Positions 4,812 to 50,507 of a stretch of DNA of 64,000 bases are shown here, piece by piece (the first letter of the stretch is position 1; the number at the start of each line of letters is the position of its first letter). Source of the stretch: Botrimarina sp. GTDB lineage: Bacteria > Planctomycetota > Planctomycetia > Pirellulales > Lacipirellulaceae. Where the stretch lies: the NCBI GenBank assembly GCA_965263145.1, contig OZ253585.1:261668-325667 (forward strand), in the 5' to 3' direction. A program made the translations under genes and the position numbers. The notes beneath the pieces were generated by a model. It was not told where the DNA came from. It did no database searches and was given only the letters and a program-made list of their open reading frames with translations.

Positions 4812-5414
4812 TTGCTTATGACTTTCGAGATGACCTGTTCAAGTCCTTGTGATACACCTTCTGATGACTCTCTTGATACTGTCACCGATGAAGAACTAAT
4901 GCAATCTTGGCATTTACACCGATGCCAGCGTTGCTTTGAAGCGTGGGCTATGCGTGTATGGAAGGACCCAGGCTACAAAGCCGTTGCAAGTCGAGTTCAG
5001 GTGAACTGGGAGAAGATCGACGTCTCGGAGTTGCGTCAAAAGGCCATCTATGAGTTATGGGACAGACCGAGAGAAATTCGCTTCGTCAAATCTTACTTCC
5101 GGCAGATGTTATTGTGGGCTGCTTACCGGGAGAATGAAGTTAGAAAGAGGCATCAGTCAGCACTTGGAGAGGAGAATGACGAGATTCTAGCAAATGTACA
5201 GGAGGCTCCTCCGATTACAGAAGATCCTCGTACCGAAGATTTGAAAGAGTGCATTGATAAGCTAAGGCCTACTGACTTGCGGCTCACCAAAGCAAGATAT
5301 TACGACGCAGAGCCCCTCAGCAACCTTGCCAGAGACCTAAACAAGTCAATGGATGCCCTCTACCAGCAGCTCGCTCGCATTCGCAAGTTACTCATGCAAT
5401 GCCTGGAAGGATAA
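4812..5414 (+). CDS. Sigma-70/ECF-like regulatory protein (weak)
   Basis: The C-terminal LRLTKARYYDAEPLSNLARDLNKSMDALYQQLARIRKLLMQC resembles the sigma-70 region 4 HTH. FVKSYFRQMLLWAAYRENEVRKRH resembles region 2.3-2.4. First gene of a three-gene overlapping plus-strand operon. Confidence 0.4.
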   Translation: MLMTFEMTCSSPCDTPSDDSLDTVTDEELMQSWHLHRCQRCFEAWAMRVWKDPGYKAVASRVQVNWEKIDVSELRQKAIYELWDRPREIRFVKSYFRQMLLWAAYRENEVRKRHQSALGEENDEILANVQEAPPITEDPRTEDLKECIDKLRPTDLRLTKARYYDAEPLSNLARDLNKSMDALYQQLARIRKLLMQCLEG

Positions 5415-6055
5415 TTCAAATGGAAGAACCATCAGATGTACCTGAGTTGACTCCTGAGCAACAGATTCTCTTTGATATTGAAACGGATAAAATCCTTGAA
5501 AATGTCCCCGAGGATAAAGTGGAAATTAGTAATCAGGATGAGCAACAGTTAGAAGAGGTGCTTAATCTGTTGCGAAACAAGGCTGCTGCTCGGGAAGAGG
5601 AAGCAAAGGTCATCCCAAAGAACGATCGTAAACCTATTAAAACTTTATCAATCGATCCCATTCCAGCTCTTGCCGCTGCTGAGCTAGTGAAAGCAACCGT
5701 TGACTGGGAAGATGGTCAGATTCGCTTCTTGCAATCCCCCATGCGATCGGACTTGGCAATCGAAGTACTGGTGAATGAAGAGGCCGCCGGAAAATACCGT
5801 GAGGCTCTTTTTCTGCTCTCTCTCAGTCTATCCGAGTGGTCACTAATCGTTATACCGGATGAATCGGCAATTTTCTGTGGAGTAACTGCTGAAGCGTTCT
5901 CAGGGGGAGCAACCATTTCCTATGAGTTTGTCTCAAAGCAAGCTCTCAGCAAAGAGTACCTACCGGCGCTCCAATACTCAAAAGAGAATTTGCGTTCACC
6001 AAGGTCTCTCAAGCTATATCGTGAACTGATAAATAAGGTTGAATCGCAATCGTGA
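5399..6055 (+). CDS. Hypothetical acidic protein (218 aa)
   Basis: ORF overlaps the upstream gene end by 16 nt and the downstream gene by ATGA (6052-6055), so it is translationally coupled. Confidence 0.4.
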   Translation: MPGRIIQMEEPSDVPELTPEQQILFDIETDKILENVPEDKVEISNQDEQQLEEVLNLLRNKAAAREEEAKVIPKNDRKPIKTLSIDPIPALAAAELVKATVDWEDGQIRFLQSPMRSDLAIEVLVNEEAAGKYREALFLLSLSLSEWSLIVIPDESAIFCGVTAEAFSGGATISYEFVSKQALSKEYLPALQYSKENLRSPRSLKLYRELINKVESQS

Positions 6056-8187
6056 GCCACCCCTCCTTCGATCCGGTTGATTCTATCAAGTCAGCGATAG
6101 CCATTGGAAATAATGGTCTCATTACGAATCCATTCGATCTGATTGGTCTTATCGCTTCCGCTTCCGAAGTAGAATCACCTAGCCGAGAACTGCTCTGGAG
6201 AAGACTTTTTCTAGAAGCTCCGCTTCCCTACTGGAATGTCGTCAATTGGGCCAAGCAAGTCACCGAATCTCAACTTACAGAAATAGCTTCAAGCACGGTA
6301 TCTACTGGCTGGGAATCGCTCCAACCTTCAACAGGAACAATCGTTCTTAGGGAGGTTTTTACTGAGATAGCCAAGCGGTTTGATGAGTTTGATCCTGACC
6401 TCTATTCTTGGGAACGTCCCGACCCAAACAAGGTATCTCTTCATCGTTTGAAGTACCTCTTAGGACGTGACCTAGCAAGAAGCTACGTTCAAGAGCAAAT
6501 TCCCAATGGTCCTCGAACCAGTCGCAGTGAATTGCTAGCTAGCAATCGAGCGGCTTGGCAAGAGTGGATCGAAGTCAATGAGAAGGTCGGATATCACCTA
6601 GGTTCGGTTTGTGAGGCAACCTCGCTTGCTCTTGATCATGTGGTTTCTCGGCAAGTAACCCCAGGCATCAATGGAATCGGTCGTAGTCATATACTTCTCG
6701 AACAGCTCAACGTTAATCTCAACTCAACCTCCGCCATTATCACCGCGAACATCTTGCCGCTTACCGAGCAGCATCAGCATCTTGATGGAATCTTGGTGCC
6801 CGACCTCCGCGAAAATGGTCTCTTGGTTATTGCTCCTGATTTCTTGGAGGGGGTCTCAAAAGCTTGGCAATACGCAAGAAGAGCTACTCCCTCGCAAGGA
6901 CCTAGTATGCTTTGCTTCTCGGTCAGACCTAAGTTGGCGACTGTCATTCAAGATCTTTCGGGCAGATCGGCAGAGCTGGCTTCGCTTGCAGCTATTGAAT
7001 CAGCTCTGAAGGAGATCGTCTTACGACCTGATGCGGCAGCTTCAGCCACACTCGAATACTCTGAGCCAGAAGTAACAATTGAGGACCCAAAAACTGGTAG
7101 GGCAAGTTTCGAAAATAAGAAATTCTCAGCAGCGAAAGACTTTAATATCTCTACTGTTGTTGTAAATACTGAGGTTGCCAGAGAGTGGAAAACTATTGAG
7201 CAGCAAATTAGTGACACCAAACGTCCAAATGACCCTGATGTGCTGGCAAGTGAATTCTACCGGCGTGATGCCCTTCAAATACTCGAAACGAAATCCCTCT
7301 GGAAACTTTCTTACTACATTCCTGGCGCTATCACCTTGGCCTTTATTGTCATGGCGGTCTGCTTTTGGCAGTTCTATAAAATGAGTGCCAGTCCCGTTAA
7401 CGCTGATTATATTGTTCATGAGGCAAAGCTGCCTTTTGTGGTCACAGCCCTTGTCGTGAGTGAAATGCTGACTCTCGTTCTATGCCTCCTGATAGGACTA
7501 ACGTGTCATCGATCGATCCGACGTTCGCTTGATAGTGAACGATCCGCCTGGATCGCCTTGGCGGTTTCTTCGGTCATCGTTCTGCTTTCCCAATACCTCC
7601 CGATCGGTGTACGATATGAAGGGTTACTCGATACGCCCCTCTACTCGGTCCTCTTTGGTGAACCACAGATTACGCCACAGCTCGTCATTGCAGCCGGAGG
7701 ACTTGGATTCTTACTGATGCATACCACCTCACAAACAGCAGGGTTTATTGCCATTCTGTTTGGAGTTTCTGCTTTTACGATCCGCCTTATCCTAACACGT
7801 GCTCATAGCGAACCGATCTATGAAGATCGTTGTGAGCTGCTCAAAAAGGATTGGCGGTTTAGCGTCGCGCTGATGGTGATGCTGATGGCAGTCGTCATGA
7901 TGTTTTGTCTGACACGTAACGTTTTCTGGTACTACTATCTTACGACCCTTCCCAACGTTCCGATGATCGACAATGGTGGCTCACTACTGCTTGTGGTGGT
8001 TCCACTGCTTACGATTAGTCTCGTTATCATTCTGTCAGTAGGATTGGTTTGGATCTTCGTTATGCAAAAGTACTTAGCCAATGTGGTTCGCACAGCTCAA
8101 GGCCGATCAGGCTATACAACTGCTGACGTCGTAGCAACGATGCCACCTCTGGCAAGACTCCTCTATCACCTGAAGCCAATCGACTAA
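6052..8187 (+). CDS. Large membrane protein (711 aa), soluble N-terminal half and multi-TM C-terminal half
   Basis: Long ORF. Hydrophobic helices run from about residue 420 onward (YYIPGAITLAFIVMAVCFW, ALVVSEMLTLVLCLLIGL, LLLVVVPLLTISLVIILSVGLVWIF). Confidence 0.5.
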   Translation: MSHPSFDPVDSIKSAIAIGNNGLITNPFDLIGLIASASEVESPSRELLWRRLFLEAPLPYWNVVNWAKQVTESQLTEIASSTVSTGWESLQPSTGTIVLREVFTEIAKRFDEFDPDLYSWERPDPNKVSLHRLKYLLGRDLARSYVQEQIPNGPRTSRSELLASNRAAWQEWIEVNEKVGYHLGSVCEATSLALDHVVSRQVTPGINGIGRSHILLEQLNVNLNSTSAIITANILPLTEQHQHLDGILVPDLRENGLLVIAPDFLEGVSKAWQYARRATPSQGPSMLCFSVRPKLATVIQDLSGRSAELASLAAIESALKEIVLRPDAAASATLEYSEPEVTIEDPKTGRASFENKKFSAAKDFNISTVVVNTEVAREWKTIEQQISDTKRPNDPDVLASEFYRRDALQILETKSLWKLSYYIPGAITLAFIVMAVCFWQFYKMSASPVNADYIVHEAKLPFVVTALVVSEMLTLVLCLLIGLTCHRSIRRSLDSERSAWIALAVSSVIVLLSQYLPIGVRYEGLLDTPLYSVLFGEPQITPQLVIAAGGLGFLLMHTTSQTAGFIAILFGVSAFTIRLILTRAHSEPIYEDRCELLKKDWRFSVALMVMLMAVVMMFCLTRNVFWYYYLTTLPNVPMIDNGGSLLLVVVPLLTISLVIILSVGLVWIFVMQKYLANVVRTAQGRSGYTTADVVATMPPLARLLYHLKPID

Positions 8188-9184
8188 CGTTGAAGTGATG
8201 GAGTAGTCACTTTATTGGAGAGGCTCTCAGTAAGTACCTGATTCCAATCCGCTCCTCGCTTTACGGGCCGGTCACCGCGGAACTCAATATCCGACCTACC
8301 AGTTTCGGAAACGATATCCATAAGTTGATCCGTTAAGCGGTCACCCGCTTGATCATTATCAAAAGCGGCTACCACCTGCGAATCTTCTCGGAGTTTTTCT
8401 ATCGCGGAGCGAATAAGGGGTGGCTGGTGAGGGTTCATTTGACCGCTGATTGAAGCAACCCGAAGCCCTCCTCCCCGTTGACCGCCATGTAGGAGATTGC
8501 ATCGAGCCCACTCTCGGCTATTGCAAGTGTCCGATCATTCCTAAATCCGGCAGATATCCAAAGTCCTTTCTTACCGCCCTTACTAAAAAGATTTACTCCT
8601 TTTCCTTTGATTTCATAGCCGGTGAGAGATGGCTGGGCATCTCCCGTCTCAAGACGTCCCCAGTGAGGGAAGACAATCGATTTTCGTACCGGGCAATGAC
8701 GAATTCTGCCAGCGAGTCTCTCGCTCTGCAAAAGCTCAAACGGAACACCTCGGACTTTGCAGAGATAGTTACTCGCATCTTCGATCGGCTCAAACCTTGC
8801 GTATCGTGCAGCAACTCCCAGAAGGTCCGGTTCACTTGGTTCAATCTTCGCTTGGTACTGGTTCTGCTGTTTTCGCTCTAGTTCGCTGTGGTAGCTAGTT
8901 CCAAGAAAAGGCCTTAAAAGTTGTCGCACTCTACCGAGAGTGCAACCTGGCTCAATGACCCGCTGCGCGAAGTCAATTACGGTTCCTGCCGAACTAGGGT
9001 CGCTTGTGCTGCAATAGACATAATGATTACCTTGTTTGGCGATAATGATTTTATCACTTCCGTTGCGCATCAGAACCGAATGGCGAGTCGATTTCTTCCG
9101 GTCAATCTCGAATCCGTAGGCACTTGCTACCAAACTAAGATTGAGTTGCTTAAAAGCGTTAAGCTCACTACTTCTATCGAACAT
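8184..9184 (-). pseudogene. DUF3991-Toprim (TraC-primase-like) protein, interrupted by a frameshift into 8435..9184 (249 aa) and 8184..8438 (84 aa)
   Basis: The upstream part has a DUF3991-like N-terminus (LNLSLVASAYGFEI...NHYVYCSTSDPSSAGTVIDFAQ) and ends with the Toprim glutamate block TLAIAESGLDAIS. The downstream piece carries the Toprim DxD block VVAAFDNDQAGDRL. A single Toprim domain is therefore split over two frames, with the frame switch near 8435-8460 next to a GGGG run. Confidence 0.55.
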
Positions 9185-9227
9185 ATGATTTCTCTGCTTT
9201 CCCTACTTCCAGCTTTGTACTGTGGTT

Positions 9228-9770
9228 TTACTTTGAAAGTAACCTTTGCCAAAACGTTCTCTCACGCTCTTTCCTCAATGCGCGCTTGAGAACCAAGATC
9301 TCCTTCTGACGCTTATCGCGTTCCTGGTCGTAATCTTGCTTCAGGGCACTGATCTGCGACTCTGTCTGCTCGGTTACCTTAGTAATCGTTGCCTCTAAGG
9401 AGGCTTGCCAAGCATCTTCTTTGACTGATCGATCTTCCAGCAAAGGGGGAATATCAAGCGCCTTCTCCAAGGTGTTTTGAAGGTGCGAATTTGTTTTTTC
9501 TAAATGTTCGATCCGGTCTTCGTATTGAGCAATTAAACGATCCTGCATGATTTGGTTATTAGTAGGCTTTATGTTTGCTTCAATCTCATTCTCCGCCAGT
9601 TGGAAATCTGCTCCGTAGACACGCACGAGTTCGCCAGCATCCAAAACCTTACGGCCTTGTGAGTCTAGCTCATAAGACAATTTTCCATCCTTAATATGAC
9701 GCGATAAAGTGGCCCGGTTGCGATTCACTATTCGCGCTGCAGCAGAGATTGAAAATTTGGTTTGGGTCAT
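9228..9770 (-). CDS. HTH DNA-binding protein with long C-terminal coiled coil (KfrA-like architecture)
   Basis: The likely true start is the ATG at 9770 (MTQTKFSISAAARIVNRNRATLSRHIKDGKL = HTH). The rest is a heptad-rich coiled coil. The track ORF extends further upstream to 9953 without support. Confidence 0.45.
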   Translation of the reverse strand: MTQTKFSISAAARIVNRNRATLSRHIKDGKLSYELDSQGRKVLDAGELVRVYGADFQLAENEIEANIKPTNNQIMQDRLIAQYEDRIEHLEKTNSHLQNTLEKALDIPPLLEDRSVKEDAWQASLEATITKVTEQTESQISALKQDYDQERDKRQKEILVLKRALRKERERTFWQRLLSK

Positions 9771-10541
9771 CGGTACTCGTTTGGTAACTGTTGCATCTCT
9801 TGCCACCCTACTACACCTTAGGCACATTACGCAAACGATTTGTACCCGCGCACTCCGGCTGATATCTAACTGCCATGTAACTGAAATGCAACTTCCCATG
9901 CACCATCGGCTTGCTACACATGTCGCATCATGAAGCTGGGAGGAATGAGGCAAGAATCATGCTACCTCCTTACGACGCTAGATTGTCGCAGCGTGTGTCA
10001 CTAATACTTTTCTTTTTGTTTCAACGATTTAGACATTCCATGGTGCAAATGCACCGCGACATGATCTGATGCACCATGCTGCATATGCAGCAAGAAGTAG
10101 CACCGCTTTGTCTCAATGCCTGATGGCATGGCAGCAGGTGACAGCTTGGCATGCTACCTAGCTGATCAAATGTCTCAGCATGTAGCAGTACGTCGTATCT
10201 TCTGCTTTCCTTACTGTCAAAGCAGTTGTGGTCCCTACTCCGCGTTTTGCAGCAATAATGCGATGCTATCTAGCAACGCTACACAGCGTTGCATTTTTTG
10301 TCGATATCTGAGGAAAAAACAGGTAAGGTAGTTTTGTGGCTAGCCGAATCGTGGCCAGCTATTCTCATCGCTTTGGTTGTTCTGACTAAAGCAATCTTAT
10401 ATGTCAACTTTTCACCCAAGGAGGAGCGTCTACTGATCATCTTTGTAAAATGAAAAAGCCACCATGAAGGTGGCTTTGTAGGAATATCGAGCGAAGCTCT
10501 GTGATCATTAGCATCTTCACAGTACGATAGCTTGGTCTTCA
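9771..10541. promoter_or_regulatory. Palindrome-rich non-coding region between the divergent KfrA-like and Rep-like genes (candidate operator, iteron or origin)
   Basis: Perfect palindromes GGTGCAaaTGCACC (~10041-10054), TGCTGCATATGCAGCA (~10077-10092) and GCAACGCTacacAGCGTTGC (~10267-10286). Repeated CATGCTACCT (9967, 10150) and many GCATG/CATGC motifs. No convincing ORF. Confidence 0.35.
10452..10485 (-). terminator. Rho-independent terminator-like hairpin, minus orientation
   Basis: AAAGCCACC-atgaa-GGTGGCTTT stem-loop. Read on the minus strand it is followed by TTTTTCATTTTA. It sits about 60-130 nt upstream of the Rep-like gene start, which is compatible with a countertranscript. Confidence 0.35.
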
Positions 10542-11414
10542 TTGCAATTCTTTATTGAACTTGCAACGGTTTCTTGCACACTTTTTACGGGGAGGGGAAA
10601 GAGTCGCTTAGAAGATATGCAATCACCAAGACCAGCACCTACCAAAGCGCGGGAGTGTAGTAGGGGAGAGAGGCTCGCCAAAATACGTCAATTACAGCAA
10701 CAAGAAATAGAGAAACAGCTCATTGCTAAAACACTAAAGAAATCGGTGTCATTCCATGATAGCAAACCAATCGGCTACCAAAGGCCTTCTTACAATACTC
10801 CCACTTACTGGAGAGACAGTGCGCGTGGCTGGATAACAGAGACAGAACAGCAACAAGATCATGCTGAGTTTGAAGTAAGGCGGAAGAGGGGGCTTCGGTC
10901 CGTTGGAACCAAAGCTAAGCCAGCTTTGCGTCATAGTCGGCCTCCGCCTGGAAAGACGAAACAATTCGCCAAACCAATGTCAACCGAAGCGGCACGCGAC
11001 GATCGGCTTACGCCTCAATCAAAAGCTCTTTTGCAAATCATCACAGCTAGAACCGGGCAGGGACGTTCGACAGATACTACCAAGACTACGCTAGGTGCGA
11101 TAATGAGTCGGCATGCTCGTTCCATCCAGCGTTATATTCAAGAGCTAATTAAGTTTGGGTATATACGAACTCAAACCATCAAGAGTCGACGAACTGGCTA
11201 CTATATCGGTCTTAGGATATGGATTATGGATAAGGTGCTTCCATTTTATAAGGAGACTTCTGAGCATTATGATCCGACTCTCTGGCATCGCTTTGCCAGA
11301 AATGACGGAATGTCAGAGGAGACAAAAGAGTCCCTTACTAATAATAAAAATATAATAAAGAGACTTCTGGGGGCGGATAAACCACCTTGGTTTGATGAGT
11401 TGGCTTACAAATAA
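10542..11414 (+). CDS. Putative replication-initiator-like protein (winged-helix C-terminus). The start may be the ATG at 10617.
   Basis: The C-terminal LLQIITARTGQGRSTDTTKTTLGAIMSRHARSIQRYIQELIKFGYIRTQTIKSRRTGYYIGLRIWI resembles RepA-type winged-helix DNA-binding domains. A GGGAGGGGAAAG RBS-like stretch precedes the 10617 ATG. Confidence 0.35.
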   Translation: MQFFIELATVSCTLFTGRGKSRLEDMQSPRPAPTKARECSRGERLAKIRQLQQQEIEKQLIAKTLKKSVSFHDSKPIGYQRPSYNTPTYWRDSARGWITETEQQQDHAEFEVRRKRGLRSVGTKAKPALRHSRPPPGKTKQFAKPMSTEAARDDRLTPQSKALLQIITARTGQGRSTDTTKTTLGAIMSRHARSIQRYIQELIKFGYIRTQTIKSRRTGYYIGLRIWIMDKVLPFYKETSEHYDPTLWHRFARNDGMSEETKESLTNNKNIIKRLLGADKPPWFDELAYK

Positions 11415-11643
11415 CCTTGCCAGCCTTTCTCTAAATCAAAATCTCAAGAATCTGATATCAAACTGCCAAGCAGAGAGTAGTGCTGACCTAATCAATTGGG
11501 CAATAGGAATAATAATCTCTTCGCAACGTATGATACGCTGCTTTGGCAACCAAACCTTTCCGAATGCTTTCTCAACGTTAAGCTACTGCATCCAAGCACA
11601 AAAATGGGTCGATCAAAGTCGCAAGCTTTGGTAAGATGTCCAA

Positions 11644-13215
11644 ATGACCACTAGCCCACTAAAGATAGCCGAGCCGTTATCTCTTCTAGATACCCTGGAA
11701 GAATTACAACAAGCTTATCTTGCTGAAACTACCCCGGAGATACGCAAAGCGCGCGGTCAGTTTTTTACGCCATGGCCAATAGCCAACTTCATGGCTGAAG
11801 CTTTGGACTTATCGGAGGGTCCGCTAAGAATCCTTGACCCGGGAGCAGGGGCAGGGGCTCTTTCTGTGGCTGTCTGTGAAAGGTTACTTAAAGAACCAGC
11901 AGGTCGATTAGTTCATTTTGATCTATTCGATACCGATAAAGATGTCATTGCTTATCTTGATCAGGTAATGTCTGAATGTCAGTCAGCTATGTCATTAGCG
12001 GGGCATTCAATGACTTATAAGATTTGCTCAGAAGATTTCGTCCTAACGATGGCTCCATGCCTTGGGCTCTCTCAAGAAGAGACGCCAACCTACGATGCCG
12101 TTATCGCTAATCCACCGTACTTCAAGATCAATAAGGCCAGCCCTTATTCTTCCGCTATTCCTGAGATCATTCATGGGCAACCGAACATCTATGCCATCTT
12201 CCTTGCCGTTGCAACTTCTTGCTTAAAAGAGGGTGGTTCGCTAGTTTCAATCACTCCTCGCAGCTTCTGCAACGGTCTTTATTTTCGTGCATTTCGCAAG
12301 TGGTTTCTTGATCGGATGGCATTAGATCAAATCCATCTCTTCCGCTCGCGCACCAATACGTTTCGGGAAGCTAAAGTTCTGCAAGAAAGTGTTATTACGG
12401 TTGCCACCAAACAGTCTAAGCGAAACAAATCGATAACGGTTAGCCGTAGTGATGATCGTGAATTTCAATCTCTTCAAGAACAAAACTTGTCAGCTGAGCA
12501 AGTTGTTTCCAAATCTGATCCAGATCGATTCATCTATCTACCTGAGACAAATCAAGATGCTGAAATCGTAAAATATGCCCAGCAATGGAAATTCCCCTTT
12601 GAAGAACAAGGCTTACGGATTTCCACCGGACCCGTTGTAATGTTTCGAGCTAAAGAGTTTTTGCTTGAGGATGAGACAAAAGGAGTCCCGTTGCTCTCAG
12701 CTCACAACATTCGTCAGTTTCAAACTGTCTGGCCTATCACAAAAGCAAAATGGCCCGTCGCCTTCGCCGATACCGAAGACTCTCGGAAGCACCTCTTGCC
12801 AACCCGCAACTACGTACTTCTCAAACGCTTCAGTTCAAAAGAAGAGAGGAGGCGTCTTACTGCCGGATGCCTCTTTGCAAAAGACCAGAACTATGAACGC
12901 CTAGCGATTGAAAACCACCTAAATTACATTTATCACACGGAACGAGAACTAACCGATCAGGAAACCCGTGGTGTGGCTGCTATTTTCAATTCAGTATTCT
13001 TTGATAGGTACTTTCGAACCCTGAGTGGAAACACTCAGGTCAACGCGACTGAAATCAGAACCTTACATTTCCCCTCACTTGAGCTAATTGCCCGCATTGG
13101 GGAACGGATTTGCAATGCAGATGGGCTTGATCCAGTACAGTCAGAACATATCGTTCTAGAAGAACTTGGTGTCAACGGTTCTCTGAGAAGTTATTTAGAA
13201 AGTGTTGCTACATGA
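11644..13215 (+). CDS. Type II N6-adenine DNA methyltransferase, gamma class (Eco57I/TaqI/PstI-like)
   Basis: Motif I ILDPGAGAGALSVAV (FxGxG-like), then motif IV VIANPPYFKI (NPPY), then a long C-terminal TRD. This order is typical of gamma-class MTases. The size (523 aa) fits M.PstI/M.BsuBI. Confidence 0.85.
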   Translation: MTTSPLKIAEPLSLLDTLEELQQAYLAETTPEIRKARGQFFTPWPIANFMAEALDLSEGPLRILDPGAGAGALSVAVCERLLKEPAGRLVHFDLFDTDKDVIAYLDQVMSECQSAMSLAGHSMTYKICSEDFVLTMAPCLGLSQEETPTYDAVIANPPYFKINKASPYSSAIPEIIHGQPNIYAIFLAVATSCLKEGGSLVSITPRSFCNGLYFRAFRKWFLDRMALDQIHLFRSRTNTFREAKVLQESVITVATKQSKRNKSITVSRSDDREFQSLQEQNLSAEQVVSKSDPDRFIYLPETNQDAEIVKYAQQWKFPFEEQGLRISTGPVVMFRAKEFLLEDETKGVPLLSAHNIRQFQTVWPITKAKWPVAFADTEDSRKHLLPTRNYVLLKRFSSKEERRRLTAGCLFAKDQNYERLAIENHLNYIYHTERELTDQETRGVAAIFNSVFFDRYFRTLSGNTQVNATEIRTLHFPSLELIARIGERICNADGLDPVQSEHIVLEELGVNGSLRSYLESVAT

Positions 13216-14156
13216 GCCGCCTGAAAGAAGCACAAGTTCTACTCAAAGATTTAGGGATGCCATCTGCTCAATACAATGAGCGTTCAGCATTGACTCTGCT
13301 TGCATTGGCAGGACTTGGTCCCAAGGATAACTGGGAAGATGCTGCCCAGAATCTTCTAAGAACAGTTGATATCATGGAGTTCATCGCTGAGCATTACAAG
13401 AAAAGCTATGCGCCAAATAGCCGAGAGACTTTTCGTCGGCAGACTTTACATCAGTTTGTTCAAGCACGCATTGCCGATCACAATCCAGATGATCCATCAC
13501 GCCCAACAAACAGCGGTAACAATTGTTATGGTATCAGCGATGCAGCACTGATAGTCATTAAAACAGTGGGCACCGATGATTACAGCGAATCGGTGAAGAC
13601 ATTCCTTGCTGAACAAGGATCTCTCCAAGAGGCATATCGCAAAAAAAGAGAGCTATTGGAGGTCCCTTTGATTCTGCCTGATGGCACACAAGTAAAGTTT
13701 TCTCCAGGCAAGCATAATGAGCTTCAGGTTGCAATCATTGAAAAGATGGGGCCTCAATTTGTTCCAGGGTCACAAGTTCTGTATGTCGGTGATACAGCGA
13801 AGAAGTACGTTGTTTATGAAAAGGAATCGCTTGAAGGTCTCAATATCCCTATTACCAATCATGACAAACTCCCTGATGTCGTTCTCTATCAAGAAGAAAA
13901 TGATTGGCTGATTTTTGTTGAAGCGGTTACTTCGCATGGACCAGTCAGTCCCAAGCGATACATTGAACTTGAATCAATGTGCAAAGATTGCACCTCTGGG
14001 AGAGTTTATATTTCAGCTTTCCCCGATAGAGCTGAATTCCGCAAGTACGTTGCCGACATTGCCTGGGAAACGGAGGTCTGGATAGCCGATTCTCCAGGCC
14101 ACATGGTTCACTTCAATGGGCCAAAATTTGTTGGGCCATATGGAGAGGAGAATTGA
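13212..14156 (+). CDS. Type II restriction endonuclease partner (BsuBI/PstI-like candidate)
   Basis: Starts within ATGA overlapping the MTase stop, so it is translationally coupled. The 314-aa size and M-then-R order match PstI/BsuBI systems. No motif was confirmed by eye. Confidence 0.55.
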   Translation: MSRLKEAQVLLKDLGMPSAQYNERSALTLLALAGLGPKDNWEDAAQNLLRTVDIMEFIAEHYKKSYAPNSRETFRRQTLHQFVQARIADHNPDDPSRPTNSGNNCYGISDAALIVIKTVGTDDYSESVKTFLAEQGSLQEAYRKKRELLEVPLILPDGTQVKFSPGKHNELQVAIIEKMGPQFVPGSQVLYVGDTAKKYVVYEKESLEGLNIPITNHDKLPDVVLYQEENDWLIFVEAVTSHGPVSPKRYIELESMCKDCTSGRVYISAFPDRAEFRKYVADIAWETEVWIADSPGHMVHFNGPKFVGPYGEEN

Positions 14157-14229
14157 TTGAGTTAATCACAAGTTATTCAGAGTTGCTTTAGGTTGAGGAG
14201 CAGTCACTTACAGAAATACATGGGTACTA

Positions 14230-15207
14230 TTATGTGTAATGAGGTCTTTGTATGCACTCCAATATTTTTGAATCCAAATCTGGCAGTTCTATTTCTGTAG
14301 GAACCATAAGTTTAGGTTTTGATCCGCCTCTATGTTTCTTTAACTTCTTAAAGAGCGACTTACCTTCGACATTTATTAGCGATTCAAGGATTGCACCATA
14401 TGGCGATAAGTTTAATGTCTCGCAACCCCGTCCATTATTAGTTTCTTTGTCTACTATCTCCCACAGTTTTTCCTCAGTGAGTTCAAGTGATCTGCAAAGC
14501 TCTTGAATATTTTGTGCCAAGCGTTGTACATCGTCTGGCAAATTCTCATCTTGCCACCGCTTTTTTACAGCTTCTATCATCTTATGAAGCTTGTCGGTTC
14601 GCCAATCAGACTTAGCAATTGATTGAGAAGAGGAAAGGCTGCTTGCTTCGGCAATCGTTAATTCTGCGTTCTCTAACATAGCCTTTACTTGGTATGCGAT
14701 CCTACTACCCGGCCAATCCACGCTGTCTGATTTATAGACAACGTCATGCGTTGCGATTCCCCATGCATGCTGCAGGAAGGTCTTAATCTGCATTTCAAAA
14801 AGTAGTCCGTCGCATCCACTAGGTCTTGCTTGCCCATCACGCCAACGGACATATAAACGAAGTTCATCAAAGTCAAAATTACAAGGAAGATGCGGCGTTA
14901 TGTTTTGGGATTTTGGTTTACGAGATGCAATTTCGAACTCTTTACAAATCAGAGTTTCTGCCTTGGAAATCGAAGCCTGATTTTCAACTACCAAGCAACA
15001 AGCAAAAAGATCATCTGGTCGAGTACAATCGGTAACTCGACCTGTTTCAAGTTTTTGTGCAAAACTCTCAAGTTGCTTTAAGCGGGATTCGTAGTGCCAT
15101 CTTTTCTCTTTTATGGCTGACACTTTGGTGTCGACCATATTTTTAAGGTTATTATAGGTTGGCAAGAGTCCTGCGTGAAGGTCTCGAACAGACTTGGGCA
15201 CTTTCAT
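14230..15207 (-). CDS. RelA/SpoT-domain nucleotidyltransferase (small alarmone synthetase-like)
   Basis: LFEMQIKTFLQHAWGIATHDVVYK matches the RelA/SpoT synthetase signature (compare RelQ QIRTFAMNFWATIEHSLNYK). DLFACCLVVEN matches the D-x-GiRvi strand. It overlaps the upstream DUF262 gene by ATGA. Confidence 0.65.
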   Translation of the reverse strand: MKVPKSVRDLHAGLLPTYNNLKNMVDTKVSAIKEKRWHYESRLKQLESFAQKLETGRVTDCTRPDDLFACCLVVENQASISKAETLICKEFEIASRKPKSQNITPHLPCNFDFDELRLYVRWRDGQARPSGCDGLLFEMQIKTFLQHAWGIATHDVVYKSDSVDWPGSRIAYQVKAMLENAELTIAEASSLSSSQSIAKSDWRTDKLHKMIEAVKKRWQDENLPDDVQRLAQNIQELCRSLELTEEKLWEIVDKETNNGRGCETLNLSPYGAILESLINVEGKSLFKKLKKHRGGSKPKLMVPTEIELPDLDSKILECIQRPHYT

Positions 15208-16268
15208 GGATGCGTCTCAAAGAACTCACATAATGCCTCTAAACGTTTTTCGCGAGGTTTAAAGTCCGTACTCGCTCCACCAAACGAATCTAAGTATTTT
15301 AGAACTGGATCTTCGTCATGGTTTTGCGCATCTGAGGCTTGGTTACCTTCCTTCTTGGCAAGTGTGAATCTTGAAAGAAATTCTTCGTATATTTCAGCAA
15401 ATTGTTCTGCATCTGGTGAGTCGTCCCAATGAAGAGTCACAAAAGACCAAAGAGAATAAAAATGTGCAACCGATTTTGTACAAGCATCAATAGCTCTACC
15501 ATAATCAAACAAATCGATAATGAACTCTTTACTTCGATGAAAACACTCCTTGACAGAATCGGGATCAAACTCGTCATCTCTTTCGTCGACTAAGTCATAA
15601 TCTGAATAAAGATCATCGAGTGCATCCTGATCAAATCCTTGCTGTTCACCGTGAAGAACAACAGCTAGAAGTTCAGACATGAATTGAGCGTCCTTCATTC
15701 GTTTTGATCGTGTCTTAGTAACTAGCCCAATGTTCTCCCAATCGCTATCTTCACACTCATTCTCAATAAAATTAATCAGCCAACCATCCCACCTTGCATG
15801 CCTGAGCTCTTGTCGCTCAAGTTTTCTCATGTTTCGATTCAGCCTGTCAAACGCACGACTAACCTCTTGGGCCCCATCGTCTTCAAAAGTTAGGTGTTCG
15901 ACTGGTATAACGTAATCCCAGAATGTTGTGCGCTCATCATCTCCAAGCTCTTCCCATTTCTTGCCATTTAGACGCTGATCACCATACGCGTCATCAATAG
16001 CAATTTCACCATTTACGAACATAAAAAGGGTTTGCAGGCGCTGTTTACCGTCAACTACGGCATAGGTTGCCTTTTCTCCATCTACCATTGTCTTGTGTAA
16101 AAAAATTGGTGGACATGGATAACCTCGAAAAACAGTATCAAGGAAAAAACGCCTGTCCTTACGATTCCAAACACTTCGTCTTTGGTATGGAGGATCAAGC
16201 TCAAGCTGATCATTTCTTCGAGCATCAAGAAACCAACTAATATCTGCTGTTGAGGAACGGCGTTTCAT
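15204..16268 (-). CDS. DUF262 (ParB-like nuclease/NTPase) domain protein
   Basis: PPYQRRSVW, PPIFLH and AVVDGKQRLQTL are the hallmark DUF262 motifs (the usual DGQQRL block). At 354 aa there is no DUF1524 HNH partner domain. Confidence 0.75.
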   Translation of the reverse strand: MKRRSSTADISWFLDARRNDQLELDPPYQRRSVWNRKDRRFFLDTVFRGYPCPPIFLHKTMVDGEKATYAVVDGKQRLQTLFMFVNGEIAIDDAYGDQRLNGKKWEELGDDERTTFWDYVIPVEHLTFEDDGAQEVSRAFDRLNRNMRKLERQELRHARWDGWLINFIENECEDSDWENIGLVTKTRSKRMKDAQFMSELLAVVLHGEQQGFDQDALDDLYSDYDLVDERDDEFDPDSVKECFHRSKEFIIDLFDYGRAIDACTKSVAHFYSLWSFVTLHWDDSPDAEQFAEIYEEFLSRFTLAKKEGNQASDAQNHDEDPVLKYLDSFGGASTDFKPREKRLEALCEFFETHP

Positions 16269-22459: not shown

Positions 22460-23511
22460 GGCCTTGTCGAACAACCTTTGATTTCACTGCGTAGAAGAGC
22501 CGGTTGAGCGGAGCTCGACCTTCTTTTCTTTAGCAGACGGAGCGAAAACGATGGTTGCTAGCAAATCGAAGCAGACCAAGTCTTACCAGGTTCACAACTG
22601 GCGTGATTATAACCGATCTTTGGTCAATCGAGGTAACATCACCTTCTGGTTTAATGAAGAAGTGATCGATTCCTGGGAGCACGACAATGCTCAGAAGAAG
22701 AACGGCTGGCCGTTTACGTACAGCAATACTGCCATCGAAACGTTACTCACCTTGCGAGAACTCTTTCGGTTGCCGTATCGCCAGACCGAAGGTCTGGGCA
22801 TGGCAATAGCCAACTTAATGCACCTCAAGCTTCGGATTCCCAGTTATACGAATCTTCAGAAACGCGCAGCGAAGATGCAAGTTGATTCGAAGTCTCGACG
22901 CTCAAAGGACCGATCACGATTGTTGTCGATAGTACCGGCCTGAAAGTCTTTGGTGAGGGAGAGTGGAAGACGCGTCAACATGGCGTCGATAAGCGACGCA
23001 CTTGGCGTAAGCTCCATCTTGCCGTCGATCCCGATTCGCAAGCGATTGTTGCTCAGCTTCTAACCGGTAACGATACACACGATGGCGATGTGGTCGAGCC
23101 ACTCGTAAAACAGATTCAACCTGAAGTCGAAGGCTTTTATGGCGACGGCGCTTACGACCAACAGAAGGTCTATCAAACGCTAAGTGAGCAAGAAATCTGG
23201 ACGATCATTCCGCCTCGTAAGAATGCCAAGATTCAGCAGCATCGCAATTCGAGCAGCGATCCGCTGGATCGTGACGAATGCCTTCGGCAGATTCGTCGCG
23301 AAGGAAAGCGTGCATGGAAAGAATCAATCGGTTATCATCGACGTAGCTTAGCCGAGACGGCCATGAGCCGATTAAAAACTAACTTTGGCGGTCGGCTAAA
23401 GAATCGAAAATTGGTAAACCAAGTTACCGAGGCGGCCCTCAGGTGCAAACTGCTCAACTGGTTCGTTACCCTTGGGATGCCGCTTTCTACTTGGTGTTAG
23501 GAAACAAGGCC
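22460..23511 (+). mobile_element. IS5-family insertion sequence, IS903-like (~1052 bp)
   Basis: Imperfect terminal inverted repeats GGCCTTGTCGAACAACC (22460-) and GGCCTTGTTTCCTAACA (reverse complement, ending 23511). These resemble the IS903 IR GGCTTTGTTGAATAAATCG. The length is close to the 1057 bp of IS903. The internal DDE transposase has IS5-family similarity. No clean target-site duplication was found. Confidence 0.7.
22551..23500 (+). pseudogene. IS5/IS903-family DDE transposase split by a -1 frameshift (22551..22943 frame 0; about 22914..23500 frame 2)
   Basis: N-terminal part: MVASKSKQTKSYQVHNWRDYNRSLVNRGNITFWFNEEVIDSWEH... C-terminal part: IVVDSTGLKVFGEGEWKTRQHGVDKRRTWRKLHLAVDPDSQAIVAQLLTGNDTHDGDV...YGDGAYD. 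The combined ~316 aa approximates the single-ORF IS903 transposase (307 aa). Confidence 0.7.
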
Positions 23512-27357: not shown

Positions 27358-27430
<73 letters not shown>

Positions 27431-31291: not shown

Positions 31292-31448
31292 ATTAATGAC
31301 TCTGTGGTAAAGTTTGCTGTATAAGAATACTTAAAGAGAAATATAGCTTTGGAAGCCAAGAAGGTCGACCATTGAATGGTGAGGAGCGAGAAGCTTAACT
31401 GCTATTAAACCGCAGGCCGAGATTGCTCTCGGCCTGCGTCGTCAGTTT

Positions 31449-33002: not shown

Positions 33003-33075
33003 GTTGTGGTACGGGAATCGAACCCGTGGCTGCTAGATCAATAGTCTAGTGCTCTACCTACTGAGCTAACCAATG
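33003..33075 (-). pseudogene. tRNA-like sequence with non-pairing acceptor stem and non-standard anticodon (ATT). Possible tRNA pseudogene or att remnant.
   Basis: The reverse complement has canonical D arm (TA-GCTC-AGTAGGTA-GAGC), anticodon stem (CTAGA/TCTAG) and T arm (ACGGG-TTCGATT-CCCGT). The 5' acceptor CATTGGT cannot pair with the 3' ACCACAA. The anticodon loop is CTATTGA. Confidence 0.35.
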
Positions 33076-33294
33076 GTGATCTGTCTTCACTTTCGTTAGA
33101 GTCCATGCACGGAACACACTACGCCAACTGCCTGGGGCAGGACGCAGGGCGCCGCTGGCCCAGCGATTTCAAATCTTGCTTGTAGTTCGTCATAAATCCG
33201 CCGGCTAGGAGTTGAATCTACCCTGCTCGTTGGAGCGGTTGGTTCAAAGCCACTTGGGCGCGCCAATGTCCAGTCGATGCGTCGATTTCTTTAG

Positions 33295-33368
33295 TAGCAC
33301 GAAAGGGATTCGAACCCCTATCCACCAAGGTTTGAGCTTGGTCGCTCTGCCTGTTGGCGTACCGTGCC
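33295..33368 (-). tRNA. tRNA, anticodon CAA, class I (short variable loop). Identity uncertain.
   Basis: GGCACGG-TA-CGCC-AACAGGCAG-AGCG-A-CCAAG-CTCAAAC-CTTGG-TGGAT-AGGGG-TTCGAAT-CCCTT-TCGTGCT-A. All stems pair, with G-U at 1-72 and 7-66 and a 3-bp D stem. Anticodon loop CTCAAAC. Confidence 0.55.
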
Positions 33369-33386
33369 AATAAATTATTTCATAAG

Positions 33387-33461
33387 CGTCCCTGATGGGA
33401 TTTGAACCCACGATCTCCTGCGTGACAGGCAGGCGAGCACTCCAGGCTGCTCCACAAGGAC
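33387..33461 (-). tRNA. tRNA-Asp (anticodon GTC)
   Basis: GTCCTTG-TG-GAGC-AGCCTGGAGT-GCTC-G-CCTGC-CTGTCAC-GCAGG-AGATC-GTGGG-TTCAAAT-CCCAT-CAGGGAC-G. The anticodon arm is identical to the E. coli tRNA-Asp arm. Confidence 0.85.
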
Positions 33462-33474
33462 TAAGTTCTACTAG

Positions 33475-33548
33475 TACCCAGGGCAGGATTCGAACCTGCA
33501 AACACCTGATTCTAAGTCAGGTCGCTCAGCCAGTTGGCGTACCTGGGC
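33475..33548 (-). tRNA. tRNA, anticodon TAG, class I. Identity uncertain.
   Basis: GCCCAGG-TA-CGCC-AACTGGCTG-AGCG-A-CCTGA-CTTAGAA-TCAGG-TGTTT-GCAGG-TTCGAAT-CCTGC-CCTGGGT-A. Shares the D-arm sequence with the CAA tRNA. Confidence 0.55.
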
Positions 33549-33667
33549 GTGATGGAATTTGTATTGAGTTAGGGTGGCTGGATTCGAACGATCGAGATCT
33601 CCCGATTCCAAAGCATAAGCTCTATTATTAGTGTTAGGGGGTCCAAGCTATCCTACGCTCTGTTTAG

Positions 33668-33738
33668 TGCGCCCAGCCGGAATCGAACCGACACACCCTG
33701 CATGGCAAGCAGGGAGGCTGCCACTACATCATGAGCGC
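33668..33738 (-). tRNA. tRNA-Gly (anticodon GCC)-like, with irregular D arm
   Basis: Acceptor GCGCTCA/TGGGCGC pairs. Anticodon arm CCTGC-TTGCCAT-GCAGG matches the Gly-GCC loop. T arm GTCGG-TTCGATT-CCGGC. The D-arm region ATGTAGTGGCAGCCTC does not pair cleanly. Confidence 0.5.
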
Positions 33739-37134: not shown

Positions 37135-37242
37135 AACAGTTGTTCGATAGGTAGAATTGGTTTTTATATAGGTATTTTAAAAGAAACCACCATCAATCTC
37201 TAACGATTGATGGTGGTTTTAAATTCTTTCAGCAAAAAATAT

Positions 37243-50349: not shown

Positions 50350-50472
50350 GGGCTAGTTCAATTGGTCATATAGGGCTAAGGCAACCAGCTACTCAATCAA
50401 AATATTGAATCTGCTAATGAAGCAGTGTGTGTGTCGCCACCCTCTGCGAATTGCTGGCAACTAAAACAAAAA

Positions 50473-50507
50473 CGGCTGCTGTACTACATTGTACAGCAGC
50501 CGTTAGG
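50473..50507 (-). terminator. Rho-independent terminator for the minus-strand gene ending at 50604
   Basis: Perfect 14-bp inverted repeat AACGGCTGCTGTAC-tacatt-GTACAGCAGCCGTT. Read on the minus strand it is followed by TTTTGTTTTAG. Confidence 0.5.

Follow-up and report, generated by a model that had tools for sequence, protein, structure and literature searches.

Antisense control of rep genes is a textbook mechanism, and the plasmid systems that use it include RNAII with CopG in pMV158/pLS1, RNAIII with CopR in pIP501, RNAI in pT181, CopA with CopB in R1, and the countertranscript RNA (ctRNA) of the alphaproteobacterial repABC systems. These ctRNAs are about 50-150 nt long, are transcribed against the initiator gene from within its leader, and consist of one or two stem-loops and an intrinsic terminator. 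In addition, ctRNA control is often paired with a DNA-binding repressor encoded next door. A comparable arrangement is predicted here for a locus of the planctomycete Botrimarina sp. (assembly GCA_965263145.1). The window, that is, the whole stretch of 64,000 nucleotides that was analyzed, covers positions 261,668 to 325,667 of contig OZ253585.1, and the element in question is a gap of 846 bp (9771-10616 of the window) between two divergent genes. On the left, a minus-strand gene encodes a protein with a helix-turn-helix (HTH) and a long coiled coil, and on the right a plus-strand gene encodes a winged-helix protein of the HTH_36 type, called Rep-like below. The gap is read here, with moderate confidence, as the control region of a replicon-type module, in which a ctRNA gene and a repeat array lie between the HTH/coiled-coil gene and the HTH_36 gene.

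The gap is bounded by the first base of the left ATG at 9770 and by the right ATG at 10617, and the left start was fixed by alignment with relatives whose proteins begin MTxTKF. For comparison, the window was set beside 16 related loci, giving 17 loci in all, which are identified by L numbers where they have to be told apart. The right half of the gap (10297-10616, about 320 nt) is homologous to the sequence upstream of the Rep-like gene in all 16 further loci (nhmmer E values of 1e-46 to 1e-85, and multiple alignments), even though their proteins share no more than 53-62% identity with that of the window, and the left half (9771-10296), next to the HTH gene, cannot be aligned among loci. The comparison supports a complete gene for a countertranscript of 60-70 nt in the right half, on the strand opposite to the Rep-like gene (Table 1). 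An earlier note, made from the letters of the window, had singled out a minus-oriented hairpin followed by a T-tract. This observation is borne out, and the hairpin is now predicted to be the terminator of a complete and conserved small-RNA gene, with covariation in the stem, a U-tract behind it, and a promoter about 60 nt upstream in 17 of 17 loci.

The terminator hairpin carries the strongest signal for this gene. Among the loci its stem alternates between CCACC/GGTGG, CCGCC/GGCGG and CGCGC/GCGCG, and in the covariance-model alignment 99.3% of the cells of the helix are paired on the minus strand. Two of its pairs change on both sides, from GC to AU in 5 sequences and from AU to GC in 7. The helix contains 13 double-change cells, compared with 5.2 +/- 2.1 in shuffled controls, none of 500 of which reached 13, and sliding the partners by 1-3 columns lowers pairing to 32-57%. 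The extended stem also holds eight G.U cells on the minus strand, which are A.C on the plus strand. Behind the stem, the minus-strand T-run of the window is GGTGGCTTTTTCATTTT, reaching 10447 (also given as TTTTTCATTTT). The corresponding A-run is invariant. U5-U7 comes after the stem in 16 loci, and the seventeenth (L008) has UUUCU. In contrast, the plus-strand T-run is only 2-5 nt long and often broken (CTCTG, CTTGG and TCTTT in several loci). The G.U cells, together with an invariant A-run set against a degenerate T-run, therefore give an asymmetry that favors the minus strand. When G.U and A.C counts are taken globally over helices predicted on both strands, they are indecisive (21:15, 18:8 and 41:36), and a clear minus-strand signal comes from the terminator only.

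The predicted promoter lies at a fixed distance upstream. Its -35 element is TTGCAT or TTGCAA, apart from single instances of TTGACA, TTGCGT and ATGCAT, the spacer is 17 nt in every locus except L089 (18 nt), and the -10 element fits TAnnnT throughout. Within the promoter block, invariance is confined to the C of TTGCA in the -35 element and to T1, A2 and T6 of the -10 element. T1, A2 and T6 are the -10 positions that matter most in sigma-70 promoters. About 12 nt past the -10 element comes a small hairpin (SL1), followed by a linker of 10-14 nt, the GC-rich hairpin and the U-tract. SL1 is predicted in the group-A loci and in most group-B loci, with L089 and L084 folding differently; its covariation is unscorable, since the two subgroups are offset by one column at SL1 in the model alignment.

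The predicted RNA is of similar size, 60-70 nt, and of the same overall two-hairpin shape in all 17 loci, and the copy in the window folds at -18.8 kcal/mol (z = -3.6). Covariance model R1 matches the window at 10447-10552 on the minus strand with 81.3 bits (E 4e-18), and the covariance model from alignment A4 recovers all 17 copies with 56-106 bits. None of the 4227 models of Rfam 15 reaches its gathering threshold in 9700-10700, and at E <= 10 the matches are of chance level (MicA at 21 bits against a threshold of 41, sR14, sroH and others). As far as sequence comparison can tell, the RNA family is uncatalogued, in that no Rfam model matches it, and it is kept in at least 17 mobile-element loci of the Planctomycetota. 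A full-text literature search combining "countertranscript" and "Planctomycetes" returned no paper. In addition, a scan of viral contigs with the 14-mer GCCGAATCGTGGCC gave at least 120 loci, all of them chance matches and none with the element by nhmmer.

A further copy probably exists outside the phylum. A contig of 15.9 kb from Mesorhizobium sp. PUT5 (L011, region 5469-5980) gives a full-length match to the model, at the same place and on the same strand upstream of an HTH_36 gene. The match is weak (19.9 bits, E 0.002, with filters off), but the layout includes TTGCAA, 17 nt and GAGAAT, an SL1 of the form GGCC-CUC-GGCC, and a terminator GCCCGCC/GGCGGGU followed by U6. The contig also carries a VirC1-type parA gene divergent from the HTH_36 gene and adjoined by repeated TAGAGTACCGTAC motifs, a MobA relaxase, a restriction-modification system and a resolvase. 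With this set of genes it resembles a small plasmid, on which the HTH_36 gene is the only Rep candidate among the 10 largest open reading frames (ORFs) scanned. The sequence and layout make the Mesorhizobium locus a probable relative of the RNA family, and the same ctRNA layout beside an HTH_36 gene suggests that the module crosses phyla.

On the plus strand, a candidate promoter for the Rep-like mRNA is found at the left end of the conserved half. All 17 loci have TAnnGT at this place in the alignment, preceded at 17-19 nt by a -35 element that matches 3-4 of 6 positions. No conserved promoter-like element was seen between the ctRNA gene and the ATG (10548-10616) upon inspection of the sequence and the alignment, so the Rep-like mRNA would start near 10336. 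Its leader would be about 280 nt long, and the predicted overlap with the countertranscript is about 61 nt, complementary to leader nt ~117-177. Two hairpins, H1 and H2, follow the predicted start. H1 is kept in 13 of the 17 loci with an invariant loop of 7 nt, it shows compensatory changes in L091 (GGTC/GACC) and L061 (AGGCC/GGCCT), and its inner 7 positions have 8 plus-strand G.U against 4 A.C. H2 folds in 13 of 13 loci and covaries around a conserved GTTCTG loop, while its summed energies barely separate the strands (-155.8 for plus, -151.8 for minus). H1 and H2 are likely to act as RNA, with a weak signal for the plus strand; both are also DNA palindromes, and for H1 an RNA hairpin and a DNA operator look alike. 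The leader also holds a near-invariant AAGGAGG that is followed by no conserved start codon, and a long-range helix that encloses a GTGA...TCAC hairpin. In group-B loci the AAGGAGG is able to pair with a conserved CGCUCUUC downstream according to alifold. As a separate observation, the loci of a second subgroup (L003, L004, L005, L002, L008 and L093) contain GTGATTCGGC, the exact reverse complement of GCCGAATC of H1, about 240 nt away from it and about 12 nt upstream of the ctRNA -35 element (about -47 to -56 from the predicted start; in L003 the two lie at 5547-5555 and ~5754-5763). These sequences, which are absent from the subgroup of the window, may represent long-range pairing in the leader or two copies of one protein site.

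The conserved candidate sense promoter and the covarying H1 and H2 raise the question of whether sense RNA could account for the whole region, either as a long cis-acting leader or as a sense small RNA (sRNA) of about 140 nt (10336-10480), in which the hairpin at 10455-10477 would serve as attenuator or terminator, its bidirectional action being incidental, and there would be no functional antisense RNA. The plus-strand G.U pairs of H1 fit this explanation, alifold energies favor the plus strand slightly (-131 against -118.5, and -89 against -78.6), and most loci have a plus-strand T3-T5 run behind the hairpin. It offers no reason, however, for the minus-strand TTGCA(A/T), 17 nt and TAnnnT, which keep a constant distance to the hairpin in all 17 loci, for a plus-strand T-run that decays to GGCTCTGTGG, GGCTTGGTAA and GGTCTTTGG beside an invariant A-run, or for the eight minus-strand G.U cells of the stem. 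Sense-only regulation is therefore considered unlikely as a replacement for the antisense RNA, and it is compatible with it as an added layer. A more elaborate combination can also be imagined. In it, H1, H2, AAGGAGG and the bidirectional hairpin would be freed as the ~140-nt sense sRNA or form a ligand- or protein-sensing attenuator, and together with the 61-nt antisense RNA they would decide whether the integrated element enters plasmid-like replication, the cassette being common with alphaproteobacterial plasmids. Such a two-RNA switch is a speculative proposal with a low probability.

Translation of the region was considered as well. The longest ORFs in the gap encode 87 amino acids (minus strand) and 74 amino acids (plus strand). 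Two small ORFs cross the conserved half, at 10289-10453 (plus) and 10279-10542 (minus), and neither is regarded as coding, since frameshifting indels dominate: against every relative there are 1-12 indel runs across the two ORFs, almost none with a length divisible by three, and in relatives the spurious ORFs lie in different frames or contain stops. The earlier note had seen no convincing ORFs in the gap and had named a conserved ORF as grounds for abandoning its reading; no reading frame is kept across the relatives, and its view stands. A small protein such as a type I toxin, with the antisense RNA as antitoxin, could nevertheless be sought in the 54-amino-acid ORF at 10289-10453, whose product has the hydrophobic stretch WPAILIALVVLTKAILYV and gives weak tblastn matches in four relatives. 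These matches merely mirror DNA conservation, and this ORF has 1-8 indel runs against every relative, almost all again not multiples of three. Moreover, it is interrupted by an in-frame stop in L005, the spurious ORFs of L003/L004 are in other frames than those of L005/L008, and AAGGAGG has no suitably spaced start codon behind it. A small protein at this position, a toxin or another, is thus very improbable.

Table 1. Predicted features of the gap and its flanking genes, in window coordinates.
Feature	Position	Strand	Remarks
Divergent gene, N-terminal HTH and long coiled coil	9228-9770	minus	180 amino acids
Variable half of the gap, ATGCWNC array	9771-10296	both	11 copies
Palindrome 1, GGTGCAaaTGCACC	10042-10055		GGTGCA-aa-TGCACC; inverted pair of the TGCACC form of the motif
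Palindrome 2, TGCTGCATATGCAGCA	10077-10092		TGCTGCAT and ATGCAGCA; perfect 16-mer, inverted pair of ATGCAGC
Palindrome 3, GCAACGCT-acac-AGCGTTGC	10273-10299	plus	arms and loop 10273-10292, then ATTTTTT; terminator-like hairpin with T6
Candidate promoter of the Rep-like mRNA	10301-10329	plus	-35 TCGATA 10301-10306; 17-nt spacer; -10 TAAGGT 10324-10329; predicted start ~10336
H1, TGGCTAGCC-GAATCGT-GGCCAGCTA	10337-10361	plus	invariant 7-nt loop; 13/17 loci
H2, GCTTTGGT-TGTTCTG-ACTAAAGC	10370-10392	plus	conserved GTTCTG loop; folds in 13/13 loci, covaries
AAGGAGG	10418-10424	plus	near-invariant in 17 loci
Predicted countertranscript, ~61 nt	10452-10512	minus	5' tail, SL1, linker, terminator hairpin, U-tract
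Predicted intrinsic terminator hairpin, AAAGCCACC-atgaa-GGTGGCTTT	10455-10477	minus	U-tract 10447-10457
SL1, GAGC-loop-GCUC	10489-10499	minus	5' hairpin of the predicted countertranscript
Predicted countertranscript promoter	10519-10547	minus	-35 TTGCAA 10547-10542; 17-nt spacer; -10 TACTGT 10524-10519; predicted start ~10512
H6, TTGCAATTC-N6-GAACTTGCAA	10542-10566		inverted repeat, also listed as direct repeat D3; overlaps the countertranscript -35 element
DnaA-box-like TCTTGCACA	10572-10580	plus	TTWTGCACR in relatives; conserved position, 40-90 nt before the ATG, 17 loci
Rep-like gene, winged-helix (HTH_36) protein	10617-11414	plus	265 amino acids

Based on these features, the antisense reading may be put as follows. 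The Rep-like mRNA would be transcribed from the TAnnGT promoter with a structured leader, within which an opposite-strand promoter of the sigma-70 type would drive a countertranscript running from ~10512 to ~10452. By analogy with the plasmid ctRNA systems, this countertranscript would be constitutive and short-lived, both RNAs would be made and would pair within the leader, and Rep-like expression would be lowered, perhaps by attenuation or by an effect on translation or stability. By the same analogy, the dose of the countertranscript would limit the copy number of the element. The two promoters are convergent with predicted starts about 175 bp apart, and transcriptional interference may add to the effect. 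As a second layer, the adjacent HTH protein would bind the array in the left half of the gap, in autoregulation or in a partition-like or origin function.

Several points weigh against this reading or limit it. The target of the countertranscript lies 105-170 nt upstream of the ATG, and direct occlusion of the ribosome-binding site is therefore impossible. A conserved downstream attenuator or pseudoknot partner was not found, a T-run before the ATG being present only in the subgroup of the window, and minimum-free-energy folds of eight leaders with the target blocked or free gave no consistent change at the ribosome-binding site. The SL1 stem is almost invariant and thus offers nearly no covariation, and its loop of 3-5 nt is small for a kissing loop. 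Both promoters were predicted from consensus matches and conservation, and the rules for promoters in this phylum are poorly known. In addition, the conserved element was not detected upstream of the Aurantimonadaceae homologues of the Rep-like gene or in two 'Cytophagales' loci from metagenome-assembled genomes (MAGs). The Rep role of the HTH_36 protein is itself unproven: its HTH_36 score is marginal (24.2 bits against a Pfam cutoff of 25), its fold matches are to generic winged helices, a search of PDB sequences with the profile of the family found nothing, and a distant homologue on the Aureimonas plasmid pAU20e adjoins a separate RepA. Finally, the element in the window is probably decaying, as judged from the gene beside the HTH gene, a Toprim/DUF3991 gene that is split into overlapping minus-strand ORFs (8184-8438 and 8435-9184) of 84 amino acids (Toprim_2) and 249 amino acids (DUF3991). 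It is a single ORF of 337 amino acids in L085, L086 and L092, and the split gene is probably a frameshifted pseudogene.

The part of the conserved half closest to the Rep-like gene is open to a reading at the level of DNA. Here H6 has covarying pairs that change between AU and UA in 7 sequences, and a DnaA-box-like TTWTGCACR follows, which resembles the DnaA-box consensus TTWTNCACA and is a possible origin component. The region could accordingly be a replication origin or a TrwC-type transfer origin (oriT), with hairpins extruded from single-stranded or supercoiled DNA. The conserved position of TTWTGCACR fits such a function, as do H1 and H6, which are also perfect DNA palindromes, and a sequence conservation that extends beyond pairing. 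A TrwC relaxase gene lies two genes off in L003-L005, L084, L089 and L093, and origins usually adjoin rep genes, as is also stated for planctomycete plasmids in a survey of these (bioRxiv 10.1101/2024.01.22.576637). Against this, the element tracks the Rep-like gene beside relaxase and DUF3991-Toprim neighbors alike, and the window contains it although none of the 27 ORFs scanned there (up to 41.6 kb) is a relaxase or integrase gene. The R388-type nic sequence is absent within 3 mismatches, and the combination of an inverted repeat and a nic sequence by a relaxase operon, as in a MOBF (TrwC) oriT, was not found at the locus. An AT-rich unwinding block is absent in the GC-rich relatives. Moreover, G.U-tolerant covariation, a U-tract and promoter geometry are traits of a transcription unit. 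An exclusively DNA-level function consequently appears improbable, though an origin may overlap the control region.

The three palindromes of the earlier note lie in the left half of the gap. Direct reading confirmed them, together with the minus-strand hairpin, at the positions it had given or within one base. In 9771-10620 there are 3 perfect inverted repeats whose arms have 8 nt or more and whose loops do not exceed 6 nt, compared with 0.09 +/- 0.29 in 500 dinucleotide shuffles, none of which reached 3, and with 0.20 per 850 bp over the whole window. If arms of 6 nt or more are counted, the excess becomes borderline (4 against 1.39, P about 0.06). As background for palindrome density, long perfect inverted repeats (arms of 12-15 nt) occur elsewhere in the window at 31411-31438, 37184-37219 and 50471-50504, and are probably intergenic terminators. 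Palindrome 3 with its T6 lies immediately upstream of the plus-strand promoter candidate, and its hairpin is not kept in relatives.

The short motif of the left half in the window, ATGCWNC on both strands, has 11 copies against 1.8 +/- 1.3 in 1000 shuffles and a window-wide mean of 0.6 per 530 nt, although the motif was defined after the data had been seen and the P value is inflated. In addition, CATGCTACCT is present twice, at 9958 and 10150. The left half of each locus repeats a short motif of its own many times over, on both strands: TGACCA/GGTGGTCA in L003, L004, L005, L008, L085 and L089, CTGACA in L001, L060, L084 and L093, AACATG/CATGTTGCA in L086, L092 and L061, CGTGCA in L091, TGATCA in L002, and GCTGCA in L090. 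The class of motif tracks the recognition-helix type of the divergent HTH protein and not the Rep/leader subgroup, a comparison that is confounded by shared ancestry. The case in point is L085, whose Rep-like protein and leader belong to the subgroup of the window, yet whose motif is TGACCA and whose helix is of the TGACCA class (...TIKRH...). This correspondence points to the HTH/coiled-coil protein as the binder, and the ATGCWNC copies are most likely its binding sites.

The earlier note had suggested operators or iterons. Palindromes 1 and 2 are indeed pairs of the motif and could be operators, although they are not conserved, and palindrome 3 is a terminator-like hairpin of the plus strand rather than an operator of the same type. 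Classical iterons are absent: Tandem Repeats Finder reported nothing in the gap, no set of three or more tandem direct repeats of ~17-22 bp was found there, and the strongest family of direct repeats consists of 3 copies of a 12-mer with 83% identity. In the autocorrelation of left-half k-mers, spacings of about 100 or 190 bp recur in some loci with no strict period.

A tblastn search of the 16 related loci recovered the HTH/coiled-coil gene in 14 of them, at the corresponding position. Its product had been called KfrA-like in the earlier note. The architecture agrees with this label, which remains unproven, as a Pfam scan of the 180-amino-acid protein gave no match at all, KfrA_N included. 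The protein matches NCBIfam NF038291 (rep_pAB02_ORF2, "plasmid replication DNA-binding protein") over its full length with E 7e-14, and its 52.5 bits compare with a cutoff of 85. By sequence it is related to NF038291, with a score at which membership is not assignable. The label Rep-like is likewise still unproven, its support coming from the marginal HTH_36 match and the context. The protein has 108 homologues, the nearest of which (53-62% identical) are from Planctomycetota (Aeoliella, Pirellulales and Planctomycetaceae MAGs), and the remoter ones from Hyphomicrobiales (Mesorhizobium, Brucella, Aureimonas, Fulvimarina and Jiella). Matches to a PHROG initiator and to DnaD-like proteins have E values of about 2e-3. 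The HTH_36 protein may be a replication initiator.

The genomic setting bears on what the module would control. The locus sits in a chromosomal contig of 3.8 Mb, so the module belongs to an integrated mobile element and not to a free plasmid. The rest of the window resembles a planctomycete chromosome, with sulfatases, PEP-CTERM, dockerin and ThuA proteins and a Rhodopirellula-type extracytoplasmic function (ECF) sigma factor, and a search of 9000-11500 against PLSDB with distant blastn settings found no match. In the relatives, the neighbors of the module are TrwC relaxase or DUF3991-Toprim genes, ArdC, tyrosine recombinases and toxin-antitoxin pairs, which indicates that it is part of integrated conjugative or mobilizable elements. 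The layout that the earlier note had likened to plasmid replication or partition control with an antisense RNA is therefore supported, with limits: the ctRNA gene is borne out by the comparison, and the module has no iterons and lies in an integrated element instead of a free plasmid.

Other genes in the window are mentioned for completeness. Directly 3' of the Rep-like gene (11644-16268) lies a pair of BsuBI/PstI-type methylase and endonuclease genes, and beyond it, on the opposite strand, are a RelA_SpoT-like gene and a GmrSD_N gene, giving the area the flavor of a defense island; N6_Mtase genes are found near the module in relatives too. On the other side, the ECF sigma factor, a protein of 218 amino acids and a multi-pass membrane protein of 711 amino acids without a family match form an apparent operon (4812-8187, plus strand) that ends beside the split Toprim gene. 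A DDE_Tnp_1 transposase in two ORFs (130 and 136 amino acids; 22551-23500) may be an insertion sequence remnant or a case of programmed frameshifting. The tRNA genes of the window, a cluster of five at 33007-33738 and a single one at 27358-27430 (minus strand), include no obvious attachment site of the element.

In comparison with described systems, the module shares features with several. Among planctomycete plasmids, HTH_36 proteins are listed as putative initiators on three, and MOBF relaxases are noted in planctomycete chromosomes (bioRxiv 10.1101/2024.01.22.576637). The plasmid proteins share the HTH_36 label and the phylum with the Rep-like protein, and the chromosomal relaxase-bearing elements fit the context of L003-L005, L084, L089 and L093. 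In the passages retrieved from it, the survey describes no control region, antisense RNA or repeats for HTH_36 genes. With KfrA of the IncP plasmids and NF038291, the left gene has in common a small product with an N-terminal HTH and a long coiled coil, a replication gene next to it, and repeats or palindromes upstream. It differs in that the protein, putatively DNA-binding, has no Pfam KfrA_N match and scores below the NF038291 cutoff. The iteron origins of F, pSC101, RK2 and pPS10 likewise have element-specific repeats by the gene of a winged-helix initiator and a DnaA-box-like site. The repeats of the gap, however, have cores of 6-9 bp in both orientations at irregular spacing and are not tandem direct repeats of 17-22 bp.

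The closest parallel is with the ctRNA systems. As in these, a minus-strand promoter is predicted in silico within the rep leader, and a predicted terminator would close the short transcript. Unlike them, the RNA predicted here has no Rfam match even at E <= 10, the initiator candidate is an HTH_36 winged-helix protein, and the hosts are integrated elements of Planctomycetota. The leader is also unusually long, with a target 105-170 nt before the ATG and no conserved attenuator or pseudoknot partner. Antisense control of this kind is not new as a mechanism; if the reading is correct, it would mean that integrated conjugative or mobilizable elements retain a replication-control circuit of the plasmid type. 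With a candidate initiator, a DNA-binding partner, repeats and a copy-control RNA, the module would be a candidate minimal replicon with means for tuning copy number. Native replication modules have been suggested as parts for shuttle vectors in this phylum, where broad-host-range replicons have failed. Overall, the proposed two-layer control, by a countertranscript and the HTH protein encoded next to it, would parallel that of CopG and RNAII in pMV158, CopR and RNAIII in pIP501, and CopB and CopA in R1.

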